Part shown: in pieces, positions 9,817 to 36,919 of the stretch
How the letters are laid out: each line of letters begins with the position of its first letter
Position numbering within the stretch: position 1 is the first letter of the stretch
Origin: a virus
Lineage: Duplodnaviria; Caudoviricetes
IMG/VR virus record: IMGVR_UViG_3300030329_005429
Coordinates: 1 to 53,976 of that record
DNA: 53,976 bases
Strand: one strand, 5' to 3'
The notes under the pieces: model-generated
Databases searched by the model: none
Told to the model about the DNA's origin: nothing
Seen by the model: the letters and a program-made list of their open reading frames with translations, nothing else
Made by a program: the position numbers and the translations under genes

Positions 9817-10011
9817 ATGCCATTCACTAAAGTTGAACCAATTTATTTAAGTAAGTGTTGTAATAAGCCAAGAGATACTTGTTATGACCCAAAAGATAAT
9901 GTTTGCTCTCATTGCTTAAATAAAGCTAATTTTGAAAAGGTTAATAAAGAATATGCTAAGAAAGTTCGTGAAATAGAGTATTGTGAATGGTTACTTAATA
10001 ATAAGATATGA
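9817..10011 (+). CDS. Small Cys-rich (zinc-binding) protein
   Basis: AAGGAG SD; SKCC and CSHC. Confidence 0.75.
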   Translation: MPFTKVEPIYLSKCCNKPRDTCYDPKDNVCSHCLNKANFEKVNKEYAKKVREIEYCEWLLNNKI

Positions 10012-19494: not shown

Positions 19495-19714
19495 TTTGCC
19501 AGATGAAGACTACCTATTATTGAAAACAAGAGCAGCAAAAGAAATGCGTTCAATAAGAGCTCAGGTAGCTTATGATATAAGAGAAGCTGTAAATAAAGAT
19601 ATTTCAGATAGGAAAGAATGGCGAAAAATGAATAATGAAGCAGCTAAATTTGCTAAAAAGACTCTTTTGGATACAATGACACAAGAATCTGTCGGTCCTA
19701 TGGAGAAATTATGA
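19478..19714 (+). CDS. Ribbon-helix-helix (Arc-like) DNA-binding protein
   Basis: VTIDLPDEDYLLLKTRAAKEMRSIRAQV matches the RHH pattern. Confidence 0.7.
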   Translation: MKVTIDLPDEDYLLLKTRAAKEMRSIRAQVAYDIREAVNKDISDRKEWRKMNNEAAKFAKKTLLDTMTQESVGPMEKL

Positions 19715-20244
19715 GCACAACAAAGGAACTAGTAGGCGAATACATCGATATAGAAATAAGAAAGGAGTACGCAGAAAGTCTTCAAGAAAGAAACGAATGC
19801 GATAATGCTCTCCAGGTAATACAAACAAAGCTAAAGAAGAAGGTTAAAGGTATAGACCATATAGTTATGGAAATGGATAAGAAATTAGCACTTGTAGTTG
19901 CTGAAGAAGATATTATATCCAAAGAAATAGCCAGATTAAAGAGAAGAAAAAATGCTATAAAAAGAAGTAAAGGATATTTCAATGAGGTTCTTTTACCAAT
20001 AGTAATAAAAGAAGTAGGTCAAAATGGAGTATTCGAAACTGAAACAGCAAAATATAAGTTATATGAAACATATGGAAAAGTAGATGTTAATGAAATAGAA
20101 TGTCCTAAAGACTATCTAAAAATCAGGATGGTTGAAGATATAGATAGAAAGAAAGCCAGAGCTGATGCCATAACAGCTCATAAAGAAGGCAAAGAGATAC
20201 CTGGTGTTAAAATAGCACTAGTAGAAAGAGTTAGAAGAACTTGA
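19711..20244 (+). CDS. Siphovirus Gp157-like protein
   Basis: Coiled coil EIARLKRRK, then CPKDY...IDRKK...GKEIPGV. Confidence 0.75.
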   Translation: MSTTKELVGEYIDIEIRKEYAESLQERNECDNALQVIQTKLKKKVKGIDHIVMEMDKKLALVVAEEDIISKEIARLKRRKNAIKRSKGYFNEVLLPIVIKEVGQNGVFETETAKYKLYETYGKVDVNEIECPKDYLKIRMVEDIDRKKARADAITAHKEGKEIPGVKIALVERVRRT

Positions 20245-21203: not shown

Positions 21204-21316
21204 TGAGTGATTTAGATAAATTCAAAAAAATAGTTGAAAAACTAATAGGACCTCTGGGATTAACAACTTCAAAGAAAGTTAAAAAGAAAAGAGGAAGACC
21301 AAGGAAGAAAAAATGA
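21203..21316 (+). CDS. 37-aa AT-hook peptide (not in ORF track)
   Basis: TAATG coupling and AAGGAG upstream; MSDLDKFKKIVEKLIGPLGLTTSKKVKKKRGRPRKKK; ATGA-coupled to next gene. Confidence 0.7.
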   Translation: MSDLDKFKKIVEKLIGPLGLTTSKKVKKKRGRPRKKK

Positions 21317-22215: not shown

Positions 22216-22370
22216 AATTTACTCCAAATAATTTTTATAATAAATAAGAAAATAACAGCTCCTAATACAGAAAAAACATCAACAATATGATTTCCACTAT
22301 CACTAGATATTGTTCCTACAGGAGTTTCTATAGTAAATTCCCTATCTTCTGTAAATTCTTTATTTACCAT
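22212..22370 (-). CDS. Small membrane-anchored protein (52 aa, not in ORF track)
   Basis: TAATG and ATGA coupling on both sides; IETPVGTISSDSGNHIVDVFSVLGAVIFLFII. Confidence 0.7.
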   Translation of the reverse strand: MVNKEFTEDREFTIETPVGTISSDSGNHIVDVFSVLGAVIFLFIIKIIWSKL

Positions 22371-25300
22371 TATTCTTCCTCTCTTTGCTCTTTTACAAAT
22401 TTATGCATTTTAATATATGGGAAGCCAGTCATTCTTTCTACAGTTTGTATAGGATTTTCAGCAGCTATTTTAACATCTCTTGCAAACCTACCAAAAGGCA
22501 ACATTGTCATTGCATAGTAATCTCCCATCCTACTCCAATCGTCATCTAATAAGGCTTTAAATGTAGGAGGCAATAATCTTAAAGCTGGAGGTGTTACCAT
22601 CTGTAAAGGAGCTATTGCTTTAGGGTATGCTCCAAAGAAAGCCCTGTCCCTCTCTTTTTCATCTCCAAATATCCAATCAGAAAAATCTTGAAACCAATTT
22701 AAAGGAGCAGGAAGAGTATTCTCAAAGATACTATATGTAAATACATTAGCCAAAGCAAACAACATCATATCTGTAGACATTACTCTTTTAAATCTTTCAA
22801 ATTCCATTGTTCCTTTTTGATACCCTCTTTCAGCCGCTTCTTTATATACCATATTCCTAAAAGCAACCGAGTTCCAGGCCCATAATTGAAACCTAGAAAC
22901 TATTTTACCTAAAGAAGTAGCAGCAAAAGCAGGCCTATTGGCTGCATTGTATAAAAATTGAGTATCTTTTACACCTCTTTTTGCCCACCATATTAAAAAT
23001 GGATGTTCAGCTGAATCTACAGCCCCTTTAAACATATCTTTAGCTTGTATATAATGAGCTAAGAAAGAGTCTCTTCTTAATCTTCTTTCTGAAACTCTCA
23101 TAAAGTAAGCTGCTTTATTAAATAATGAATCAGACAACCCAGAACGCTTCCAAACCTCTTTTAAAGTTTTGTCTTTAACAGATGGGTCTTTCTTTATCTT
23201 TTTAACTAACATTTCAAGGCCTTCTTTTACCTTTTTATCTTTAGCGTAATCAGATAATCCAATTTCTTTCCTTAAAAACTCTTCAATAATACCTAAACTT
23301 TCAACCCATTTATAAGTATCCTCTAAAGATTTCCATTTTGTATTTATATTATCGCTTAACCATTTTATATCTCTTGTTTTATTCCAATGTCTTAATCCAA
23401 CAGATTGAACTGTCATTGTAGTACCACCAAATATATTAGCAATAGCAGTTTTAGGATGAGCTAATAATGTTGCCAATTGATATTTAGCTTCTAAATTAGA
23501 CCAATGTTTTAACTTGTCATAAGTCATAATATCTTGTAACTCAGGAGGTAAATCTTTATTACCTAATCCCATTTTCTTTGCTATTTTGTTTATTCTATTT
23601 TTAACAGTAGAATCAGCAAACCAATAGTAAGGTGTTCCCTTTAATGCCATTTTAGGATTATTTACCATATAATCAGGAAGAATATCAGGAAAACCCATTG
23701 ACCTATTAACAAAAAGCTTATAATGATTAGTCCAGGCATCTATATTATCCCAAGCACTCTTATCTGTTATTTTTCCATTTTTATCTGTATATTTCATTTT
23801 ACCTGATTTTTCAAAATTATCAACTATCATCCTTGATAATATCTGAGATGCATTTTTATAATAAGCATCCATAACATTATTCGCATATTTCTCAATAGCA
23901 GCAGGACTCCTATCATAACCAGGTATATGCAATTCTCTTGCCATTTGATGTCCTGATTTCACTACAGATTTATCATAATCAATAATATCAGCAGTTTTAT
24001 CTTTTATTTTTTGAACTATATCATCATATATTCCCCATTGCTTCCAAGTTTCAAGACTAAAATCATCTGTAATATTTCTCATCTTAAGAGATAAAGCAGC
24101 AGCTTTAGAGATTAAACCTTCTTTAGTTGTTTTAGTATAATTCTTATTAGCCAAATCATCCATAGCAGATTGAAGTGCTTTCTCAATATGCTTTCCTTCA
24201 AAATTTACATGAGGAAAGAAATCTTTTCTATATTTAGTTCCCATTTCCTCTAATCTTCTTCTTAATGCAGATTGTAATTTAGGATTCCTAGTCATCTTTA
24301 ATTGTAAGTGAGTTCCAATCCTGTTCATACCATCAACACCAATATCTAATACTTTATCTATTGCTATATTCTCTTTTATAGCGTCCATCATATCTTTAGT
24401 GAATAATTCTAATCTAGCTTGTTCAATACCATTTTCATCTCTATATATATATTTAGATAAAGTTTTAGGATTACCTCTTAACCATTTATTGTAAATATTA
24501 TCAGTAGTTTTTGAATAAAGTTTGTTAATTTCATCCATAATCTGCTGACCAGTCATTTCTTTTGTTTTACTACCAAACCTTACATTGAATACTTTCTTAT
24601 CTACTGCAGCTATCCTTTTTAAAATCTTATCCTGTAACTTTCCATCTTTAACTCCATAAGTCCTTGCTTTTGCATTCATAGATAAATCAGAAGCTTTAAA
24701 AGCATCTAATTTCAATCCAACAGGAAGTTCTCTTTGATATGCTGCTAATTCAGCTAATTCCTGACCTTCTGTTATTGCATTTAAAAATTGGAGTTTATCT
24801 CTAAAAATATCTTCTTGCCTTCTTTTTTCATGCATAGCAAAATCACCTAAATTAGTGATAGCATAGTTTAATTGTCCCATAGCATGAGCAGGTTCATATA
24901 TAATACCTGTTTCAGCCTTTCTATCTAATGGATTCCAAAACATTCCAATTCTTTCTACTAGCTTAAAATCCTTTCTTAACCAGGCTTTATCAGAAGTCAT
25001 TGGAAATGTATTATAAAAATATTTACTTAAAATAGGGTCACCTTTAGTCCATTTTACAAATTGCTTTCCAAGCCAACCTAAATGCTGTCCTGAACGCCTT
25101 GAACCTAATAAATGATTAAAAGCTCTCATATCCTCAATAGTCATTGCATCAGGAGATTTTAAGAATAAATTCTTCATATAACCTTCAACTTTAAGCCCAA
25201 TACTCGGCCCGTAAAAATCTAAATGGTCTAATATTTCATTATATAATCTTTGATTCTCGCTAGATAACGGGACTCTTTTTTGATTTTTATTCTCAGCAAC

Positions 25301-28300
25301 TCTTCTAAATGCTGGTATCTTATCTAAAGCTCTAAGAGTTTCTAATTTAGCCTCTCTCCCCTCACCTAAATCTGCCTTTACACTTGTATCTTCAACTTTA
25401 ACATCAACAGGCTCACTCATTCTTCTTGATATTTCTAATAAATCTTTCTTTAATGATTCTGATATAGGGTCTGTAGTCTCATTAAAAAGTTTTTTATAAT
25501 TATCCCAATATTCACTTACCATTCTATCTGATATAGACTTACTTGAAAAGCCCAATCTATTTACACCAGTAGCATTTATATTCTTTCCTGATGTTTCCAT
25601 AGCAATTTCTTCAATAAAGCTTTTATCTTTTTTATTTCTCAGTCCATAAAATGTCTTTAATTCGTTTGCATATGGTATTCTGAATCCACTTAATAATAAT
25701 GCATCAAAAGCATCCTGTTCTAAATCTGTTAAACTTTCTTTGTATTTACTAATAGCAGCATCTGTTTCTGCTTGATTAACTGACCTTGTTCTTTTAGGGA
25801 GTGGTGTTTCAGACTCTATAGTATATTCAATCTTTGCTTTATCTAAGGCTTCTTTTTGTGCTTGATTTATATTTGAAACCTCTCCTTTTTTATCCTTTAT
25901 AACATATTCATAAGAACCTTCACTTTCTCTATTTAGTAAATAACTATCTTTACTAATAGCATCTGCTTCTAATGCGAGTTCTTGAAGTTTTTCCTTTGGT
26001 AATTGTCTCCAATACTCTATCCCTGTTTTATAGCCTGTCATAACAGATAAATCATTACTAAAAAAATCTTCACCCTGTTTTAATTTATCACCCTCTAATC
26101 TTCCTTGTAAAAACCTAGCTATATTTTTATTAAAAGGAACTACAAATCCTCCCCTATAAAATGCATTAGCTATCTTTTTATTTTCAGGTCTTCTAACCTC
26201 TTCATTGTAATCAGTATAAAGTTGTTGAACAGAATCTAAATTTACCCTTTTTTGATAACCATCTTGCCAATCGACATCTTTCAAAGTATCTGCTTGTTTT
26301 GATATAAAAGATATTCTAGAATCAGCAGGAATATTGTTTATAAAACCAGCTTTTTCTTTTCTTTCATGATATCGCCATTGTCTGTTATTAGCTATGTCCT
26401 TACCATAGTATGCTGTATTTATGTTTGAATAATTTTGAACAGCTTTTCTCTTCATAAATGATGTAACTTTATCTGTTCGCATTTTACCTGTTTTATTTTT
26501 AGCAGATGTCACTTCAAAAAGAGAGTCAAACATTCTAGAGTAATATAACTCAGGATTTACTATACCTATTTCATCTAATGGGTCAGAAGGAAAAGCAATA
26601 GATGCTCTTAATTTTTCTAATGCTTTTTTCAAAGCAGTTTTTTCAGTCTTTAATTTTACAGTAAATGTCGTCTTATTCTTATCTCCAACATCTATATCAA
26701 AAGTCTTACTCTCAGAATCAGCTAATTCATTTATTTTGTCGGTATATAAAGCTATTAAATTTTGCTTCGCAACCACAGCAGGCCCCAATCTATTACGACC
26801 ATCTGCAGCTATATCAGATATAGTTTTTCTATGATTCATAGAATACATAAGAGAAGGGCTTCTTCTTAGATTTATATTTGAACCTGTAGTTACAGTAAAG
26901 TCTTTTCTGTAACCTTCCTTATTATCAGATACTCCTTCATACCAATCGTCTGGATTGATTTTTTTATCCTTAGAAAGTTGACTAAACTCTTCAGGAGTCA
27001 ATACATCTTTCTTGCCTTTTTGACCATATTGAGATTTCTTATAATATCTTAAAAACTCATCTTTATTTTGATTGTATACATCTTTATATTTACTCTTAAC
27101 ATCCATAAAGAGCCACATTTTATCACCATCAGCATCAGCTCCACCAAGCTTTCTCATTATCTCCCCATGTATCAATCCTCCAAAGCCTTTTCTACCAGTG
27201 AATCCACCAAATTTTAATGCAGCAGTTCCACTAATAGAATCAATAGGAACTCTTGTAGTTAAGGCTTCAAAGAATTTAGGTATTTCTTCTTTTAAAACAG
27301 GATTGGTAGTTTTATTGTATAAATCCCAAAGTTCACCTAGATTCCTTGTTCCCCTTATAGAATCTATTTGAGATTTTAAGATTCCAGAGGCCTCTAATGT
27401 TGCTATTAAATTATCATAATTATGCTTTTTATGCCTATGTCCATCATCTAGAAAGTAAATATCTTTTTCTGTTTGAAGTCTTTTTGTTAAGGGATTATCT
27501 TGAAATTCATAATCATATACACGCATTCTAGAAGCTACTGAATTAGGCACTTTAGGTCTAGTGACCTGATGAACTATATAATTCTTTAAAATAGCCTCTC
27601 TATAAGGATTGTTCATTTTATTTAAGAATACAGAGATATGGTCTCCAGCTAATGATAAATTTCTATCACTAACTGAAGTATACTCATTCATTTCTTTCAT
27701 TACATCAGTATATTCTCTTTCACTTTTTTCACCTTCCTCAATAGCCATAGATTCAGCATCTTTATTGATTCTTAGCATTTTTCTATATACTTCTACTTGA
27801 AAATCTCCAAATCCAGGCTCTGTTAATGCTTCTGCTAATTCTGAAGCCCCTATTTTTTCTATATTATCAATTAAAGGTTTCATTAATTTAGGGTCTTTAC
27901 TAGCAAGGTATTCTGAAAGCATTTTATTATACCTATCTTCTCCCTTAAAAGACTTCAAATTATAATCTGTGAAAAATTCATTTATAATTTCAGGTGTAAC
28001 GCCTGGAGAAATAGTCGATAAAGTAGAACCTATTTGCTTTGGCAATCTTTGGTCTTTATTCCCTGATTTTGAAGATACAACCTCTGATAATATAACTCTC
28101 AAATCTTTTGAATTAACTTGGAACATATAATCTCTCATAAGTTGTTCTTGTGAGACATCAAAACGCTTTCCTTTGGCATCATAATCCCAAAATTCAAATT
28201 TACCATCTTTCATTTTACCAAAAACACCTTTTCTACTTCCATATTGCTTAGCTGATGTGGTAGGTAGCATTTGATGCAACCCTAAAGATTCCATAGCTTT

Positions 28301-31300
28301 AGATTGTCTAGGGCCCGCATCAAAATGCATATGCTTCCCTAGCAATGCTCCTGGACCATCTTCTGGTGCAGATATAATAAAGTTCTTGTTTTGACCACTT
28401 TCATTATCTGAAAAATGCAATCCTGCTTCTTTATTTATAGCTATCAAAACATCATCTCTAATAGGACTCCCCCCATCAAAATGCTCTATATTATCTGTAT
28501 TTTTCTTAATTTCCCAAGGCTTCTTTCTCAATCCAAAACCTTTAGGAATATCATCATTAGTTTTTAAGATGATAGTATTTAAGTTTCCATCAACAATATC
28601 AGGAATGTGTTTTAAATATTCAGGGTCAACAGAATGCCCATTAGTAAACCATACTTGCAATCTTTTATTTAATGATATAGGGTCATTTATAAAGCCTTCT
28701 CCAGCTATTTTCTTATAATTAGCAATATTAGGTTTTAATCCATTCATAGATAGATTATAAAATACATTAGAAACCATACCACGATTATATAGCTCATTAG
28801 CTTTTAAACTTCCACCTAAAAACTTGCTATATTTCATTCTAAAATCACGCATATCAGTATCTATATGATTTTTATCTAATTTCATAGATTTTATAATAAG
28901 GTCTTTATTATTATTTATTTCTTGATTAGTTAAAACCTCAGCTCTAGGATGCCATTTATTGTAAATCATAACCTCACTATCAGCTTTACCTCCAAAGTAA
29001 TACATTCCCTTGCCAAGCATTTCTTGATGCATATTACCAATTAATTCATTATAAGCTTTTTCAGCAGTTTCTCTGGCTTTTTTCTCTCCTATTTGAAATT
29101 TTAAATCATTATATATATTTTCTCTAAATTGTAATAATCCAACTTCTTTATTTACACCATTTCCACCTTTTTGAACTACTCCATCTACTCTAATAATAGG
29201 TCTTTGAGATGCATCAGTTATATCTACAGTGTTATTCATCTCTTTTCTATAAACTTCTTCAACATAGAAATTTACCATAGGAATACTTTTTCTATCTCCA
29301 GCCATATTCTGAGGACTTTCAGGGTCTAAATGGCTAATTTTAATATCTTTTATATCTTTAAAGGTAAAACTATCATTCTTTCCTTTTGTATAATTAAAGG
29401 TAACATATGGAGATGCTACAATCATATTCCTTTCGCCAATTCTTCTCTTTAGATAATTCCTGAAAAAGTTTCTTTCTGGGGCATTTTCATTAGACATATC
29501 AAATTTTTCACCATATCTATTTTTCATCCAATCAGAAAGTTCATTTATATCATCATTAAAGTTTTCAGCTTTTTCTAACAATTTTTGATGCAAGTCCTCT
29601 ATACTGACTTTTTTACGAGCAGCGTCTATACTACCATCTTTACGAATCCAAGAAAAGGAAAGATTATCTTCTGCCCAACTTTTAATACGAGGCATAGCAT
29701 CTATTTGAATCTGAACTCCAGTATCTTCTCTTTCAGCTATTGTCTCTAAAGCTTTTTCGACTTCTTCTCTAGCTTCCCCTAATTTAGGTTTATGAAGCTT
29801 TGCTATTTCATCTTGTAGAAATTTATAAGTTCTTGGCGCTCTTTGCGATAATTGAGACCTCTGAGTATTACCAAAGCCCTCAGTTGGAATTACAACAGGC
29901 TTATCTTTTGGTATTTTTTCTATAGCTTTTTGAATAACTCTTTTATTTAAAACAAAATCATCATCAGTAAAGAATGATTCATATCTTTCTCCTGGCAATC
30001 TTTTAGTAGGTATTCCGAAGGCATTTGGCTCATTTCTTACAGAAGCATTTCCTGATGAACCTCTCTTTAAAAAGTCATCTGCAAATATAAATACTTTATC
30101 CTTATTTTTCTGAACATACTCAGGAGTCATTTTGTCTATTGTGTAAAAATCTGGAGTTTTCTTAGAAAAAACTTTTGCCTCAGTTCTTTCTTCTAATATC
30201 TTAGAAACTTCTTCTTTTGATACAAAGCCTTTGTCTATAGCCTCTTTTAAGTAAGGATAGTCTTCTCCAAATCGCTTTATCATCTCTGTAACTTGAGTTT
30301 TTTGTATACTAGCTCTTGAATATTGTTCTACAACTTTTTTAGTTTCAGGAGACCAATCTTTTTGGAGCAAATCTTTTTCTAATTTTATAAGCATCTTATC
30401 AGCAGTTACCTCTTTTTGTAAATCCTGATATCTATATTTCATTGCAGTTCTTCTTGCAGAAGGAGATTCTTTAAATCCAAAATAAGCACCTAATAAGTAT
30501 TCATATATTTGCTCAGGAGCTGTAGCTCCTCTCATAGTAGAAGGAAGTCCTTGGAATAAAGCTCCAGCAATAGAGCCTAAGGCATTCTCTCCTAAAGCAT
30601 TTTCGCCTGGGATAGCAGATTTAAGAAGATTACCAATTCCCCTAAAAGCTCCCCCTGCTACTCCACCATGTATGAATGAATCAACCATAACATCCACACC
30701 TTTTGTCCAAGAAGAAACAGCGGATGCTGTACCTAAATGAAAAGCTCCTTCAGCCATATCTCTTGCAGTATCGTTATATAATAATTTAGATACAGTAGAA
30801 ACTGCTTCGCTTCTCTTTCCAATAGCAGTTGTAATAGCCTTAGCAGCATGTTTAGAAACAGGCTCTGTAACAGCTTTAGCAGCCATCATAGGTACTGACT
30901 TACCCTTTAAGTAAGAAAGTGCCCTTAAGACCCCTATACTGCTCTTAGCCGCTGCTCCTGGTATATAACCTACAAAACCACCAAGATGTCCTAAGCTACG
31001 AGCTATACCTTCCCATTGATTTTTAGGTTGCTCTCCTACTTCTAATGTAGTGAATCCTTCAATAAAACCAGAACCCGCTTGTTTTATCGATTCTAACATT
31101 TTAAATTCTTCATCGGAAGGGTCTCTATTGAACCACATACCATAATGATTTGCATGCTCTTCTATTTGAGAGACTAAATTTTCATTAAAATTCGAAGGTT
31201 TAGAATAATAATTCTTTATTAATCGCTTTGTTAAATCACGATTATATTGAGGTTTAAATTTGTATTCCTCTAGGTTATCCCCAGGTTGAATGTTTTCTGC

Positions 31301-31303
31301 CAT
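22370..31303 (-). CDS. Giant virion/ejection protein with double-psi beta-barrel RNA polymerase motifs (putative virion RNAP)
   Basis: GGADADGDK (D1390/D1392/D1394); RVP at R1351, 39 aa upstream; FDGG (D943), K990 and SAK (K1019) as candidate first-barrel residues; end of ejection-protein cluster. Confidence 0.8.
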   Translation of the reverse strand: MAENIQPGDNLEEYKFKPQYNRDLTKRLIKNYYSKPSNFNENLVSQIEEHANHYGMWFNRDPSDEEFKMLESIKQAGSGFIEGFTTLEVGEQPKNQWEGIARSLGHLGGFVGYIPGAAAKSSIGVLRALSYLKGKSVPMMAAKAVTEPVSKHAAKAITTAIGKRSEAVSTVSKLLYNDTARDMAEGAFHLGTASAVSSWTKGVDVMVDSFIHGGVAGGAFRGIGNLLKSAIPGENALGENALGSIAGALFQGLPSTMRGATAPEQIYEYLLGAYFGFKESPSARRTAMKYRYQDLQKEVTADKMLIKLEKDLLQKDWSPETKKVVEQYSRASIQKTQVTEMIKRFGEDYPYLKEAIDKGFVSKEEVSKILEERTEAKVFSKKTPDFYTIDKMTPEYVQKNKDKVFIFADDFLKRGSSGNASVRNEPNAFGIPTKRLPGERYESFFTDDDFVLNKRVIQKAIEKIPKDKPVVIPTEGFGNTQRSQLSQRAPRTYKFLQDEIAKLHKPKLGEAREEVEKALETIAEREDTGVQIQIDAMPRIKSWAEDNLSFSWIRKDGSIDAARKKVSIEDLHQKLLEKAENFNDDINELSDWMKNRYGEKFDMSNENAPERNFFRNYLKRRIGERNMIVASPYVTFNYTKGKNDSFTFKDIKDIKISHLDPESPQNMAGDRKSIPMVNFYVEEVYRKEMNNTVDITDASQRPIIRVDGVVQKGGNGVNKEVGLLQFRENIYNDLKFQIGEKKARETAEKAYNELIGNMHQEMLGKGMYYFGGKADSEVMIYNKWHPRAEVLTNQEINNNKDLIIKSMKLDKNHIDTDMRDFRMKYSKFLGGSLKANELYNRGMVSNVFYNLSMNGLKPNIANYKKIAGEGFINDPISLNKRLQVWFTNGHSVDPEYLKHIPDIVDGNLNTIILKTNDDIPKGFGLRKKPWEIKKNTDNIEHFDGGSPIRDDVLIAINKEAGLHFSDNESGQNKNFIISAPEDGPGALLGKHMHFDAGPRQSKAMESLGLHQMLPTTSAKQYGSRKGVFGKMKDGKFEFWDYDAKGKRFDVSQEQLMRDYMFQVNSKDLRVILSEVVSSKSGNKDQRLPKQIGSTLSTISPGVTPEIINEFFTDYNLKSFKGEDRYNKMLSEYLASKDPKLMKPLIDNIEKIGASELAEALTEPGFGDFQVEVYRKMLRINKDAESMAIEEGEKSEREYTDVMKEMNEYTSVSDRNLSLAGDHISVFLNKMNNPYREAILKNYIVHQVTRPKVPNSVASRMRVYDYEFQDNPLTKRLQTEKDIYFLDDGHRHKKHNYDNLIATLEASGILKSQIDSIRGTRNLGELWDLYNKTTNPVLKEEIPKFFEALTTRVPIDSISGTAALKFGGFTGRKGFGGLIHGEIMRKLGGADADGDKMWLFMDVKSKYKDVYNQNKDEFLRYYKKSQYGQKGKKDVLTPEEFSQLSKDKKINPDDWYEGVSDNKEGYRKDFTVTTGSNINLRRSPSLMYSMNHRKTISDIAADGRNRLGPAVVAKQNLIALYTDKINELADSESKTFDIDVGDKNKTTFTVKLKTEKTALKKALEKLRASIAFPSDPLDEIGIVNPELYYSRMFDSLFEVTSAKNKTGKMRTDKVTSFMKRKAVQNYSNINTAYYGKDIANNRQWRYHERKEKAGFINNIPADSRISFISKQADTLKDVDWQDGYQKRVNLDSVQQLYTDYNEEVRRPENKKIANAFYRGGFVVPFNKNIARFLQGRLEGDKLKQGEDFFSNDLSVMTGYKTGIEYWRQLPKEKLQELALEADAISKDSYLLNRESEGSYEYVIKDKKGEVSNINQAQKEALDKAKIEYTIESETPLPKRTRSVNQAETDAAISKYKESLTDLEQDAFDALLLSGFRIPYANELKTFYGLRNKKDKSFIEEIAMETSGKNINATGVNRLGFSSKSISDRMVSEYWDNYKKLFNETTDPISESLKKDLLEISRRMSEPVDVKVEDTSVKADLGEGREAKLETLRALDKIPAFRRVAENKNQKRVPLSSENQRLYNEILDHLDFYGPSIGLKVEGYMKNLFLKSPDAMTIEDMRAFNHLLGSRRSGQHLGWLGKQFVKWTKGDPILSKYFYNTFPMTSDKAWLRKDFKLVERIGMFWNPLDRKAETGIIYEPAHAMGQLNYAITNLGDFAMHEKRRQEDIFRDKLQFLNAITEGQELAELAAYQRELPVGLKLDAFKASDLSMNAKARTYGVKDGKLQDKILKRIAAVDKKVFNVRFGSKTKEMTGQQIMDEINKLYSKTTDNIYNKWLRGNPKTLSKYIYRDENGIEQARLELFTKDMMDAIKENIAIDKVLDIGVDGMNRIGTHLQLKMTRNPKLQSALRRRLEEMGTKYRKDFFPHVNFEGKHIEKALQSAMDDLANKNYTKTTKEGLISKAAALSLKMRNITDDFSLETWKQWGIYDDIVQKIKDKTADIIDYDKSVVKSGHQMARELHIPGYDRSPAAIEKYANNVMDAYYKNASQILSRMIVDNFEKSGKMKYTDKNGKITDKSAWDNIDAWTNHYKLFVNRSMGFPDILPDYMVNNPKMALKGTPYYWFADSTVKNRINKIAKKMGLGNKDLPPELQDIMTYDKLKHWSNLEAKYQLATLLAHPKTAIANIFGGTTMTVQSVGLRHWNKTRDIKWLSDNINTKWKSLEDTYKWVESLGIIEEFLRKEIGLSDYAKDKKVKEGLEMLVKKIKKDPSVKDKTLKEVWKRSGLSDSLFNKAAYFMRVSERRLRRDSFLAHYIQAKDMFKGAVDSAEHPFLIWWAKRGVKDTQFLYNAANRPAFAATSLGKIVSRFQLWAWNSVAFRNMVYKEAAERGYQKGTMEFERFKRVMSTDMMLFALANVFTYSIFENTLPAPLNWFQDFSDWIFGDEKERDRAFFGAYPKAIAPLQMVTPPALRLLPPTFKALLDDDWSRMGDYYAMTMLPFGRFARDVKIAAENPIQTVERMTGFPYIKMHKFVKEQREEE

Positions 31304-33257: not shown

Positions 33258-33893
33258 TTAAACTCCTTTTTTAGGTTGAGGCCTATAGCCATATTTAAAT
33301 GCATCCCACATACCCATAGGATTATCTTCTGTAAATTCACCAAATCCTTTAGCGCCTGTAAATCCTAACATTCCTGTTAGACCAGGCATTAACATATTAG
33401 CTCCCAATCCTAATACAGACTGATTCATTTGAGCTCTAGCAGCATCATTTTGAGATTTTGTATTTAAATAAGCTTCATTTGCCTGATTATATAATCCTGC
33501 AGCTCTATCTCCAGCTCCCATTGATAGTTTTTGCCCTTGCATCCACATATCCATAAGAGACTTATCTGTCTGTCCCATAGCTGAATCTAAGGCTCTTCTT
33601 CTAGAGGCTTCATTTTGAGCAAATCCAATACCTTGACTAGCTCCTGTCTGAGCAATACCTCTATTATTCATATTCATTGAAGTAGCTAAGTTATCTTGAG
33701 CTTGACGATTATATATATCAGAAAAGAAACTTCGACCCTGTTTATAATAATCAGAGTTAAAATCAGCATAATCCTCGGCTTGCTCATTCCATTTATCAAG
33801 GTACGGATTGCTTAATATTTTATTTTGTGCTGCAGAAGGGCTTTGAGTCGCTAAAAGATTCTTATTTGCCCATCTAGAAATGAAATTTCCCAT
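33258..33893 (-). CDS. Putative ejection/pilot protein
   Basis: Gln/Ala/Asn/Met-rich helical protein with Gly-rich hydrophobic tail. Confidence 0.6.
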   Translation of the reverse strand: MGNFISRWANKNLLATQSPSAAQNKILSNPYLDKWNEQAEDYADFNSDYYKQGRSFFSDIYNRQAQDNLATSMNMNNRGIAQTGASQGIGFAQNEASRRRALDSAMGQTDKSLMDMWMQGQKLSMGAGDRAAGLYNQANEAYLNTKSQNDAARAQMNQSVLGLGANMLMPGLTGMLGFTGAKGFGEFTEDNPMGMWDAFKYGYRPQPKKGV

Positions 33894-33916: not shown

Positions 33917-33946
33917 AATGTAATTAAACTTTTACATCATTTGCAA
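33917..33946 (-). promoter_or_regulatory. Possible sigma70-type promoter for the ejection cluster
   Basis: TTGCAA-18 nt-TACATT upstream of ATG 33893; weak in AT-rich DNA. Confidence 0.25.
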
Positions 33947-34085
33947 CAGTATTTTCAGAATAATCCAACTGATTATCAGAACCCTCATCTCAGTTAGCTG
34001 CAAAGCCACAATTTCTACATTGATAATGGCAATTATGGACATGTACTACTTCAGCACATACCATGCATTTACTTTCTACTGCCAT
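33924..34085 (-). CDS. Small zinc-finger protein with in-frame UGA at codon 32 (candidate selenoprotein, 53 aa)
   Basis: AAGGA SD; MAVESKCMVCAEVVHVHNCHYQCRNCGFAAN-TGA-DEGSDNQLDYSENTVANDVKV-TAA. Confidence 0.6.
33959..33977 (-). promoter_or_regulatory. Candidate bacterial SECIS hairpin
   Basis: GAUAAUC-AGUUG-GAUUAUU starts 12 nt after the UGA; G at loop position 2 followed by U. Confidence 0.45.
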
Positions 34086-34099
34086 TTAATATACATCCT

Positions 34100-36919
34100 T
34101 TATGTTGATGAATCCCATTTAAATACTATTGAAGTATTAGTATCACCTGGCCAAACTGGAGTAGTTACTTTCAAAGCTATTATCTCACCTTTAGTTATAG
34201 AATTAGAACCAGTAACTCCTGATGTAAAATCCTCATGATGAGTTATATCATCAGCTATATCTACTGTGCTATCTTTTGCCATATATACTACGCCTGGAAC
34301 CTCAGTTTGGTCTGCTGATTTATATAATTTCCATTCTATATCTCCATCCATTGCAACTTCAGAACGAAATGAAGCTTTTATTATTTCTCCGTCATATGGA
34401 GCTACCATAGCTATATATTCATTTTGACCAGTCGTAGAAGTCCTCTCTATTACATACCCAGGTAATGGTACAAAGTTCCCAGTAGAAGTTGAATAGAAGT
34501 TACAAACTCTTATTTCATGAAATTCAGAGCTTGCTCCACCACCAGATAATGAATCTCCACTTGTAATTTGAATATCTTGACCACTCTCATTAGTATAATA
34601 CAAATCAGGTGTTACATTATTCTTTACCCATAATTGACCATAATTAGTTACTGAAGTAACAGCAGCAGCTGATTGTGCTATAAATAAGGGAACTTGAGTT
34701 TCTAATTTATCATCTTTAAATGCAAATATATCACTATCATCTCTACATACTAATATACCATTAGCATCATTGTAAATCTTATCATTATCTAATCTATCTC
34801 CAAATGCAATACCACCTTGTCCTAAAACTTCTAAAGAATCTTCTACGGTAACATATGAAGAATCAGAATCTAAAGTTAGCATAGATGCTCCACCAACAGC
34901 TATTGTTAATTGGTCTTGTTGGTCGTTTACAATGTAAATACCACCAGTTCCAAATACTCCATCAAAGCATAATTTTGAGGTGGCATTTATACCTATATTT
35001 AAATTACCATTCATAGCCATAAGCCTAGTAAAATTATTTAAATCGCTACCAGAACTTCCAGACGGAGTAACATTAAAGACAATATTACCACCCTCCGATG
35101 AACCTGTACTAGCACCACCGTAAAGTTGCAATCTATATCCACTTAAATTAGGGCCAGACCTTGGAGCAGCTTGTATTATACTATGCACTCCAGCAGAGCC
35201 AACTTCTAAAGTATCTCCTGCTAATTTAACCTCTAGGGAATGATGATTACCTATAGTAATATTTGAATCAATATTAGCTAATTCACCCTCTAATTCAGTA
35301 GTGCTTTTTATAAGGATTTGGTCAGTATGAGCTAGAGTCCCTGTATAATCAGGAAGAGTTAATGTTCTATCATCTGTATGATTAGATACTAATGTTAAAG
35401 TTTTGTCACTAGTAGCTCCATCAAAATCAAATGTTATATCACGATTTCCATTAGTTCTAAGTATGATAGGATTAGTAGCAGATTGAACGATTGCATTGCC
35501 ATTAAGTTGTAAATTACCACCTAATGTGGGAGAAGTATCATCTTGTATATTTAAATTAGAATCTAATACTATTTCTCCAGTAGTATCAGGAAAGGTTATA
35601 CTTCTATTGTCAGTTACATTAGATATTAAAGTCAACCTTTTGCCTGATGTAGTCCCATCAAAGTCTAACCAGAGCTCTCTATCGGTATTACATTTAAATT
35701 GTACTGCATCAGTGCCCTCTATATCTCCTATAGAATAGCTTCCTCCCCCAGGATTGGTTTTTAAATCTCCTCCTAATGAAGGGTCACTATCATCCCAAAT
35801 ACTAATAGTAGAATCTAAAACAACAGTCCCTGTACTATCTGGGAAGTTCCAAGTTCTATCTACAGTGGCACCAAATTCAAATGTTCCTTTCTTAGTATCT
35901 GTTATCCCAAGGAGATTAACTTTTAATTGTTTGCTACCCGTATTGAATGTAAATTGAGATTCGGGATGTTCAGTGCCTTTAGTGCCAAATTGTAAGCCTA
36001 TATCTGTATCGCTTCCTACAGCCTCTATCATAGGAGCGTATCCAGTAGCAGCATTTATTATTTCTATATGATTTACAGCACTAGCAGTAGCTTCAAATTC
36101 AATCAATTCATTATCATTAGAATCTAAAATAGGGCTACTTTCATCTATACTGGTTCCACCAGAAACTGTTTGCCAAGTTCCGTCTTTTCTTAAAAATTTA
36201 TTAGAATGAGTTGCTGACCCTGAAAGAACTAATCCAGCAGCATATGAATTACCTGAACCCATAGCTGAATATTGTGTATCAGTAGGAACAATCCAACTAC
36301 CATCCTGTCGTAAGAACTTTGTAGTCCCTGATTCACCAGGATTGGGTACTAATCCATCAGCGCTATTTCCAAAGGTCGAAGTAGTCGCTAACCCTGCTTC
36401 AGAAGCGCTTTGATTAATCCATTTACTTGAACTTGAATCGTATGCTAAAATATCATTATCAGCAATGTCTGTAATAGTTGTATCTGTTAAATCAGAAACT
36501 CCTGTCGAACCTGAGAAAAGAGTACTTAAAGTTGATTGCGCTACAGTTTTAGTAGATGTTTGAGCACCCCAAAAGAAACCTGTAGTATCAGTTCCATAAA
36601 AAGTATCTAGAAAGTAAAAATTGTCATCATCTATAACAATTACATTATGGTATCCATTGTACTGATTTTGTCCTGATTTTATGTAAACAGTTAGATTACT
36701 ATATGGTATCCCGTGGTCAGTTTTGGTTGCCTTTATAGCGCCAGTTACAGTAGCTCCATAGTCTGAAAAAGTTACTGATTGAGGTATCTCAACTACAAAT
36801 AAAGATTCCACAGGTACACTTGTAACCGTCTCTGCTTCAATTATATTTATATCTCTAGCATCGGCTAATTTAAATGCTCCACCGCCTGCTTGTATTAACT
36901 TACCAGCTATACTTGGCAT
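34100..36919 (-). CDS. Tail fibre/receptor-binding protein with internal repeats
   Basis: 939 aa, Gly/Ser/Thr/Asp-rich; FLRxDGxW x2, (D/N)RxxxxPDxTG x3, DDxxPxLGGxL x2. Confidence 0.75.
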   Translation of the reverse strand: MPSIAGKLIQAGGGAFKLADARDINIIEAETVTSVPVESLFVVEIPQSVTFSDYGATVTGAIKATKTDHGIPYSNLTVYIKSGQNQYNGYHNVIVIDDDNFYFLDTFYGTDTTGFFWGAQTSTKTVAQSTLSTLFSGSTGVSDLTDTTITDIADNDILAYDSSSSKWINQSASEAGLATTSTFGNSADGLVPNPGESGTTKFLRQDGSWIVPTDTQYSAMGSGNSYAAGLVLSGSATHSNKFLRKDGTWQTVSGGTSIDESSPILDSNDNELIEFEATASAVNHIEIINAATGYAPMIEAVGSDTDIGLQFGTKGTEHPESQFTFNTGSKQLKVNLLGITDTKKGTFEFGATVDRTWNFPDSTGTVVLDSTISIWDDSDPSLGGDLKTNPGGGSYSIGDIEGTDAVQFKCNTDRELWLDFDGTTSGKRLTLISNVTDNRSITFPDTTGEIVLDSNLNIQDDTSPTLGGNLQLNGNAIVQSATNPIILRTNGNRDITFDFDGATSDKTLTLVSNHTDDRTLTLPDYTGTLAHTDQILIKSTTELEGELANIDSNITIGNHHSLEVKLAGDTLEVGSAGVHSIIQAAPRSGPNLSGYRLQLYGGASTGSSEGGNIVFNVTPSGSSGSDLNNFTRLMAMNGNLNIGINATSKLCFDGVFGTGGIYIVNDQQDQLTIAVGGASMLTLDSDSSYVTVEDSLEVLGQGGIAFGDRLDNDKIYNDANGILVCRDDSDIFAFKDDKLETQVPLFIAQSAAAVTSVTNYGQLWVKNNVTPDLYYTNESGQDIQITSGDSLSGGGASSEFHEIRVCNFYSTSTGNFVPLPGYVIERTSTTGQNEYIAMVAPYDGEIIKASFRSEVAMDGDIEWKLYKSADQTEVPGVVYMAKDSTVDIADDITHHEDFTSGVTGSNSITKGEIIALKVTTPVWPGDTNTSIVFKWDSST

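Follow-up and report, generated by a model that had tools for sequence, protein, structure and literature searches.

The 53,976-nt IMG/VR record IMGVR_UViG_3300030329_005429 (Caudoviricetes; CheckV completeness 100%), which was analysed over its whole length and is called the window below, carries a small putative zinc-ribbon gene with an in-frame TGA. The open reading frame (ORF), at 34085..33924 on the minus strand, reads M-x5-CxxC-x8-C-x3-CxxCG-x4-TGA and continues for 21 codons to a TAA. Judged from computational evidence, this ORF most likely encodes a 53-residue selenoprotein, in which the TGA would be read as selenocysteine (Sec). Sec insertion had been proposed in an earlier note made from the sequence alone. 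It was supported by the conservation of the TGA, the coding nature of the tail, the Cys residue of homologues, and a recurrent hairpin resembling a selenocysteine insertion sequence (SECIS). With somewhat less confidence, we consider it probable that a marine phage family, probably infecting Marinimicrobia (SAR406), has turned a host-type Cys zinc ribbon into a selenoprotein dependent on the host's SelA, SelB, SelC, and SelD.

The elements of the gene are as follows.

34096..34100, minus strand: Shine-Dalgarno-like AAGGA, 10 nt upstream of the ATG, read directly from the sequence
34085-34083, minus strand: start codon ATG
33993..34085, minus strand: codons 1-31, the predicted zinc-ribbon core, MAVESKCMVCAEVVHVHNCHYQCRNCGFAAN, from the translation, the 25-gene alignment, and an AlphaFold model
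33990..33992, minus strand: in-frame TGA, the proposed selenocysteine codon (residue 32), from the TGA in 26/26 IMG/VR contigs and Cys in cellular homologues
33959..33977, minus strand: SECIS-like hairpin (5' arm 33977-33971, loop 33970-33966, 3' arm 33965-33959)
33927..33989, minus strand: codons 33-53, the acidic tail, DEGSDNQLDYSENTVANDVKV, which would be translated only upon decoding of the TGA
33924..33926, minus strand: TAA, the predicted true terminator, with TAG at the equivalent place in the related contig L001

The sequence and the ORF list confirmed the layout given in the earlier note, in which a Shine-Dalgarno-led ORF with the pattern CxxC-x8-C-x3-CxxCG-x4-UGA lies between fibre and ejection genes.

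Conservation of the TGA among phage relatives

Family loci and contigs are given L-numbers and database proteins P-numbers, and the column refers to the position of the TGA (residue 32). In L001, a phage contig 81% identical to the window, the TGA and the open tail were conserved. Further relatives were collected from IMG/VR by two scans. The pattern CHYxCxNCG[F/Y], from which column 32 was left out, returned 20 loci, comprising 19 family members with TGA at the column and one unrelated hit. The family alignment returned 27 loci, of which 8 lay on contigs that the pattern had not returned; 7 of these were members, again all with TGA, and one was spurious. Altogether, the column was TGA in 26/26 IMG/VR contigs with the family, and neither TGG nor TGY was found. 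The 26 contigs held 24 distinct genes, which made 25 genes with that of the window. While the column was always TGA, the terminal stops of the 25 genes varied (TAA 12, TAG 6, TGA 7) and switched among close relatives, from TAA in the window to TAG in L001. Conservation of the UGA among orthologues with varying ordinary stops, a criterion for selenoprotein genes, was thus observed.

A metagenome scan returned only the contig of L001 and one scaffold identical to the window at this locus. Four sequencing runs gave short contigs only. One of these, from another run (X13 record 5), spanned the TGA unchanged, and a second started at the TGA itself and was uninformative. A sequencing error, which the earlier note had raised as a possibility, was ruled out because the TGA recurred in L001, in X13 record 5, and in 24 distinct relatives.

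The read-through product was also searched against a large protein collection, and a profile of the matches was then searched against a representative library. These searches yielded 27 small proteins sharing the Cys pattern, most with W at the column, two with C (P0012 and P0025), and one with Y. Four database proteins stopped just before the column (P0006, which is the window's own, P0022, P0029, and P0031). Homologues with Trp, which the earlier note had named as evidence against Sec, therefore seemed to be present, but their W appears to be a TGA called under table 4. P0011 shared 95% identity with L013 as read under table 4, and the match ran through a W at the terminal TGA of L013 into the sequence beyond it. 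Because P0011 matches L013 through this terminal TGA, the W at the column of database proteins is attributed to table-4 gene calls on short contigs. Their second W was rejected as a real Trp, as it aligns with the terminal stop. The phage-type protein P0012, available as a protein sequence only, had Cys at the column, and its IMG/VR relative L016 (85% identical) had TGA.

Public collections list P0002-P0005, P0009-P0011, and others as Trp proteins, table 4 having been selected for short contigs of low GC. Where these genes lie on long contigs, they are annotated as 31-amino acid (aa) products. Both annotations hide the presumably recoded TGA.

Coding nature of the tail

The frame after the TGA remained open for 10-55 codons (median 30) in the 25 family genes. 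After the stops of 142 long ORFs on the same contigs, the median open length was 6 codons, and the difference from the tails was significant when tested on 13 lineage medians (Mann-Whitney p = 1.5e-5). Frame 0 was the longest of the three frames after the TGA in 20/25 genes. The most conserved block of the protein was NCGFAAN-x-DEGSDNQLDY, and the [D/E][D/E]G block after the TGA was retained despite codon changes. For the Ser of DEGSD, the window uses TCT, L013 AGC, and L012 AGT, so that both Ser codon families occur, and indels in the tail were multiples of three. Coding conservation 3' of the UGA, a further criterion for selenoprotein genes, was therefore found, and the downstream coding that the earlier note had proposed to check was borne out by long open tails and by protein-level conservation with changed codons.

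In L011, L013, L016, and L039, the +1 frame after the TGA was open for 75-82 codons, and therefore a downstream gene seems to overlap the selenoprotein tail in these loci.

Cysteine at the column in cellular homologues

The family alignment was also scanned over one genome per prokaryote species. Seventeen loci were found, 15 clear homologues and two doubtful ones, and all had Cys (TGT/TGC) at the column. Ten of the loci were titled Candidatus Neomarinimicrobiota, and all but one doubtful locus had a GC content of 26-32%. The 15 clear homologues read M[I/L]E.K.C..C...[V/I]..[I/L]NCHY.C.NCGF[S/G]EN-C-HD.PH.I... In a further sample of 301 genomes of the Neomarinimicrobiota phylum, the family was present in 7, with Cys in 6/6 readable loci. 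The alignment of Cys to UGA, which is likewise a criterion for selenoprotein genes, agrees with the earlier note, which had expected Cys at this position; phage-type P0012 also had Cys there.

The neighbours of the Cys-form genes were cellular and included genes for a glycosylase, ferritin, a cold-shock protein, tricorn protease, and DUF520. At L055 (5001-5419), in one of the genome bins, a cold-shock protein gene followed the Cys-form gene on the same strand after about 70 nt; the neighbours differed at L063, and synteny was not conserved.

SECIS-like hairpin downstream of the TGA

The hairpin of the window was present as the earlier note had described it, beginning 12 nt past the UGA. It is formed by GAUAAUC, the loop AGUUG, and GAUUAUU, with 7 pairs including one G-U, and the spacing from the UGA to the loop is 19 nt. 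In the published model of the bacterial SECIS (bSECIS), the apical loop has 3-9 nt, the upper stem has 4-16 bp, and a G is at loop position 1 or 2 (PMC13188914). The UGA-loop distance is 16-37 nt and the minimum free energy (MFE) is at or below -7.5 kcal/mol (PMC13188914, Fig 2 legend). Each locus was scored by its best contiguous hairpin obeying the bSECIS rules for loop, stem, G[G/U], and spacing.

A hairpin within these loop, stem, G, and spacing limits was found in 24 of the 25 genes, with a spacing of 17-23 nt for 23 of them and of 28 nt for the remaining gene. Scores in the family ranged from -0.1 to -5.5 kcal/mol. Among 6000 codon-aligned background windows from long ORFs of the same contigs, 14.4% had any qualifying hairpin and 3.7% equalled or surpassed the score of the window (-3.3 kcal/mol). 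Fisher's combined p was 1.8e-7 when the worst p-value per lineage was used for 13 lineages.

The contribution of the peptide was separated by randomising synonymous codons with the peptide kept. In 12 of 14 representatives, 1.1-6.8% of the 1000 randomised sequences gave an equal or better hairpin, and for the window 31/1000 did so; L013 and L045 failed the test. Codon choice thus favours the hairpin beyond the needs of the peptide. The local peptides differed between lineages (DNQLDY, DPSSGY, NPGLE, IDQVDQ, and KIQDES), as did the stem sequences, and the loops were retained as AGUU[G/A/C], AGGU[U/A], GGUC, or AGGAU. The G early in the apical loop, which the earlier note had pointed out, is therefore kept as G[G/U] at a similar distance in diverged relatives, as in the bSECIS model.

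As negative controls, a qualifying hairpin was found after 0/7 terminal TGA stops of the family genes and after 1/6 other TGA stops of the window. The difference in hairpin presence between internal and terminal TGA was significant (Fisher exact p = 2.4e-6). The one control hairpin followed the TGA of the ORF at 19711-20244 on the plus strand, with a 10-bp stem and a spacing of 27, and another in-frame stop came immediately after that TGA; it is probably a chance or terminator-like structure. A search of Rfam with 8 loci returned chance rows only at E <= 10.

Candidate hosts and their selenocysteine machinery

Five genome bins bearing the Cys form (G001-G005) were searched for Sec machinery. 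The tRNA-Sec and selA were present in 5/5 bins, and selB was above the curated cut-off in 4/5, with fragments in the fifth. selD was above the cut-off in 4/5 bins, with one in-frame TGA each, and a SelW-like gene with one in-frame TGA occurred in 3/5. A Sec-utilising host, as implied in the earlier note, is consistent with these five bins. The most likely host group of the phage is this Sec-decoding clade of genome bins with small genomes and low GC, in which ten carry the title Candidatus Neomarinimicrobiota.

The SECIS elements of the bins resembled the SECIS-like hairpins of the phages. The SelW-like element had a 6-bp stem, the loop CGUGU, and a spacing of 21, and the selD element had a 5-8 bp stem, the loop GUU or GUA, and a spacing of 33. 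On the hairpin measure they scored -0.7 to -5.5 kcal/mol, in the same range as the phage hairpins. Their MFE was -3.9 and -6.1 kcal/mol for SelW-like genes (UGA plus 45 nt) and -5.3 to -9.7 kcal/mol for selD, over a longer stretch (UGA plus 51 nt). Because the candidate hosts' own elements are equally weak, the -7.5 kcal/mol threshold seems ill-suited to this low-GC clade.

The TGA contexts in the bins (L084-L086 and L094-L097) were GAG-TGA-ACK in selD and C-x-x-TGA in SelW-like genes, and short AU-rich hairpins followed.

Proposed mechanism

A ribosome at UGA-32 would meet a short hairpin 19 nt downstream with G-U in its apical loop. Host SelB with GTP and Sec-tRNA(Sec) is expected to bind this hairpin and deliver selenocysteine, after which translation would run 21 codons further to the TAA. 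Where release factor 2 wins, the product would be 31 residues long and would lack the sixth thiol/selenol position. C7/C10 and C23/C26 are predicted to form the two zinc-ribbon knuckles, with a disordered acidic tail after residue 32. C19 and residue 32 probably come together as a second metal site or as a selenylsulfide redox pair, although this is a guess. The phage copy may descend from a small cellular Cys-containing protein or share ancestry with it. We infer the binding of SelB, the insertion of Sec, the identity of the host, and the function of the protein from these comparisons.

Alternative readings of the TGA

Several observations weigh against Sec insertion at UGA-32. The window missed the MFE threshold of -7.5 kcal/mol, as its UGA plus 45 nt folded at -5.6 kcal/mol, and only one of the 25 genes reached it (L020, -8.1 kcal/mol). 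Taken alone, the 66-nt fold of the window was no better than shuffles (z = -0.38). RNAalifold, run on an ungapped alignment of 8 relatives, reached -0.07 kcal/mol with neither a consensus hairpin nor a compensatory pair, because the hairpin registers differ by 1-2 nt. L013 had no contiguous 4-bp hairpin, and the hairpins of L045, L046, and L049 were weak (p 0.12-0.14). The combined p-values overstate independence because the 13 lineages share ancestry. Pooled pairwise pN/pS was 0.06 before the TGA and 0.58 after it, from small counts, so the distal tail is loosely constrained; a hand calculation without one indel-bearing pair gave about 0.5 for the tail. Database proteins bearing W or C at this position were available as protein sequences only, which do not reveal the codon. 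The link to the host is drawn from gene sharing and GC content only, and the portal protein of the window had no match in 42 genomes of the candidate host family. Finally, UGA is the leakiest stop codon, and some reading by near-cognate Trp or Cys tRNAs may occur.

The main rival is a SelB-independent read-through by programmed leaky termination, which we regard as unlikely. A near-cognate tRNA (Trp or Cys) would read UGA-32 at low frequency and give short and long products, and the hairpin would merely slow the ribosome or weaken the action of the release factor. A UGA-specific stop with a coding tail agrees with such read-through no less than with Sec, the hairpin is weak, and W stands at the column in database proteins, though for at least one of them it results from calling under table 4. 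However, the Cys of the cellular homologues is invariant at the column and lies within an invariant Cys set; therefore it matters which residue is inserted, and Trp would be no substitute. In addition, the loop motif and spacing fit the published SECIS model and the selD and SelW-like elements of the candidate hosts, and 0/26 contigs had drifted to TGG, which is one transition away.

It is less probable still that the TGA is a genuine terminator and that the product is a 31-residue zinc ribbon, with the conserved sequence after it acting as non-coding RNA or DNA, for instance as a hairpin that regulates the next gene. Table-11 callers do stop there (P0006, P0022, and P0031 all have 31 aa), a conserved hairpin is present, and the far tail is weakly constrained. 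However, the lengths of the tails (median 30 codons, against 6 after real stops), their indels in multiples of three, and the alternation of Ser between TCN and AGY codon families contradict this explanation, as does the constant TGA at a column whose counterparts at the true terminators vary. In the Cys forms, the stretch homologous to the tail clearly encodes protein. Since the downstream neighbours differ between phages, it is also unlikely that the element plays a common part in regulating the gene that follows.

The weakest alternative, that the phage or its host decodes TGA as sense under table 4 or 25 and that residue 32 is simply Trp or Gly, is already contradicted by the codon and stop usage described below and can practically be set aside. 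Under table 4, gene calls on short contigs do yield an open protein of 53-67 aa, and TGA is rare as a stop in the window, where the 60 ORFs ended in TAA 45, TAG 8, and TGA 7 times with the TGA of the zinc-ribbon gene counted. However, the 59 other ORFs, which cover 94% of the window with 16,937 codons, contained 230 TGG and 0 in-frame TGA, in agreement with the exclusion of code 4 in the earlier note. That note had also held that UGA is an ordinary stop elsewhere, and six other ORFs of the window indeed stopped at TGA, including those ending at 10011 and 19714 and some with ATGA overlaps, as did a 37-codon ORF that ends at 21316. TGA was the terminal stop in 7/25 family genes as well.

No tRNA genes were found in the window. 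Among five relatives with 96-100% completeness, neither a suppressor tRNA nor a tRNA-Sec was above the cut-off, and tRNA-Asn was the only tRNA. A suppressor tRNA of the phage was therefore rejected as a route to reading the UGA. The tRNA-Asn (GTT) was located in two of the five relatives, at 12889-12975 in L100 and at 6010-6083 in L105. A six-frame scan of the window and the five relatives for a second TGA-interrupted ORF gave no defensible candidate, its output being mostly non-coding frames.

Protein and genomic context

The invariant columns of the 25-gene alignment were C7, C10, C19, C23, C26, G27, and column 32 when its TGA was read as Cys. An AlphaFold model based on the 25-row alignment showed a three-stranded zinc-ribbon-like core with pLDDT of 82-87 over residues 1-30. 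The tail is probably disordered because pLDDT was below 50 for residues 36-53. Foldseek against the PDB returned weak zinc-ribbon rows (best E 0.29) and no match at E <= 0.001. No Pfam family was above the cut-off for the zinc-ribbon protein, and PHROGs had no family for this gene or those around it.

In most relatives, the gene was located amid genes for DnaB, DUF932, HNH, PD-(D/E)XK, RusA, ERF, and Gp157 (for example in L008, L009, L012, L017, L025, L039, L045, and L050). Among the loci whose neighbours were read, it stood beside large ORFs with no family match only in the window, L001, and L028, and in the window and L001 these large ORFs were fibre-like and ejection-type genes. The earlier note had called it a late gene, which holds only for the lineage of the window, since most relatives carry it in a replication module. 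From this replication and recombination setting in most relatives, a function in DNA metabolism or in taking over the host is favoured over one in the virion.

In the window, the AAGGA upstream of the gene overlaps the TAA of a 939-aa fibre-like ORF (34100..36919) in the ORF list, and the next gene downstream (211 aa) starts at 33893 on the minus strand. The 2977-aa ORF at 22370-31303 (minus strand) matched Pfam only in DUF7831, at residues 392-498. No family match was obtained for the next three ORFs (339, 306, and 211 aa) or for the fibre-like ORF of 939 aa. Throughout the minus-strand block at 22370-47276, all ORFs except the zinc-ribbon gene stop at TAA.

The window has a GC content of about 33% and encodes an SU10-type capsid protein, a P22-type portal protein, and DnaB/primase. 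No close cultured relative was found, as a phage GenBank collection gave neither a DNA match nor a useful protein match, and the portal protein matched entries of this collection at about 22% identity only.

Comparison with known selenoproteins and recoding systems

The zinc-ribbon gene shares with bacterial selenoprotein genes such as selD and the SelW-like gene an in-frame UGA with Cys at this column in homologues. It also shares a 3' hairpin in which G[G/U] opens a small loop, with a spacing within 16-37 nt and a weak AU-rich stem as in the elements of the candidate hosts. Unlike these genes, it is borne by a phage, has no Pfam or PHROGs family above the cut-off, and has a folding energy above -7.5 kcal/mol.

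Sec-containing zinc-ribbon proteins of the FmdB family are known from ocean metagenomes and, in the portion of the source consulted, are listed among new marine selenoprotein families (PMC2398784). As described there, they are likewise small, Cys-rich, and marine, with Sec near metal-binding Cys; their Sec lies within a CxxU knuckle, whereas here it would lie five residues past the second CxxC (PMC2398784). FmdB was not among the Pfam rows at E <= 1 for the zinc-ribbon protein. Four motifs of the phage family were absent from four supplementary files of the GOS selenoproteome paper (PMC2398784).

Sec insertion is well established in cells. For viruses, the consulted part of PMC8310308 names only two cases, both of them glutathione peroxidase selenoproteins of poxviruses, from molluscum contagiosum virus and from fowlpox virus. 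According to the same part, these are likewise encoded by a virus, have a cellular relative, and use the Sec machinery of the host, and the SECIS of fowlpox virus lies inside the coding region (PMC8310308). Unlike the poxvirus cases, with a eukaryotic SECIS and a well-known enzyme family, the present case would concern a virus of bacteria, an element of bacterial type, and a protein without assigned function.

Two other systems place an in-frame stop inside a phage gene. The A1 read-through protein of phage Q-beta contains an in-frame UGA at which some ribosomes continue into a C-terminal extension; Trp is inserted, and its identity is unimportant. Unlike in A1, the zinc-ribbon column is an invariant Cys in homologues, and a SECIS-like hairpin is present. 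In phages with reassigned stops (tables 4 and 15), gene callers switch tables to accommodate the in-frame stop. Unlike in those phages, only a single codon of the genome is affected here, other genes still terminate at TGA, and no suppressor tRNA is present.

A 2026 review of the prokaryotic selenoproteome contains none of the words phage, virus, or viral (PMC13188914). Full-text literature searches, with subscription journals outside their coverage, found no phage-encoded selenoprotein.

Significance

The zinc-ribbon family would be the first selenoprotein family known from bacterial viruses. Current annotations of its genes are either 31-residue stubs or, where table 4 was applied, false Trp proteins. 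If the reading as a selenoprotein is true, phages exploit the most specialised decoding system of their host. Sec would then appear to be advantageous over Cys to the phage copy, because all phage copies would carry Sec where the cellular copies carry Cys. The output of a phage protein, and perhaps the success of infection, would then be tied to the selenium supply of the ocean, so that a trace element could gate the function of a phage. The conserved UGA with its SECIS could also serve as a host-range marker for uncultured phages of Sec-decoding hosts.

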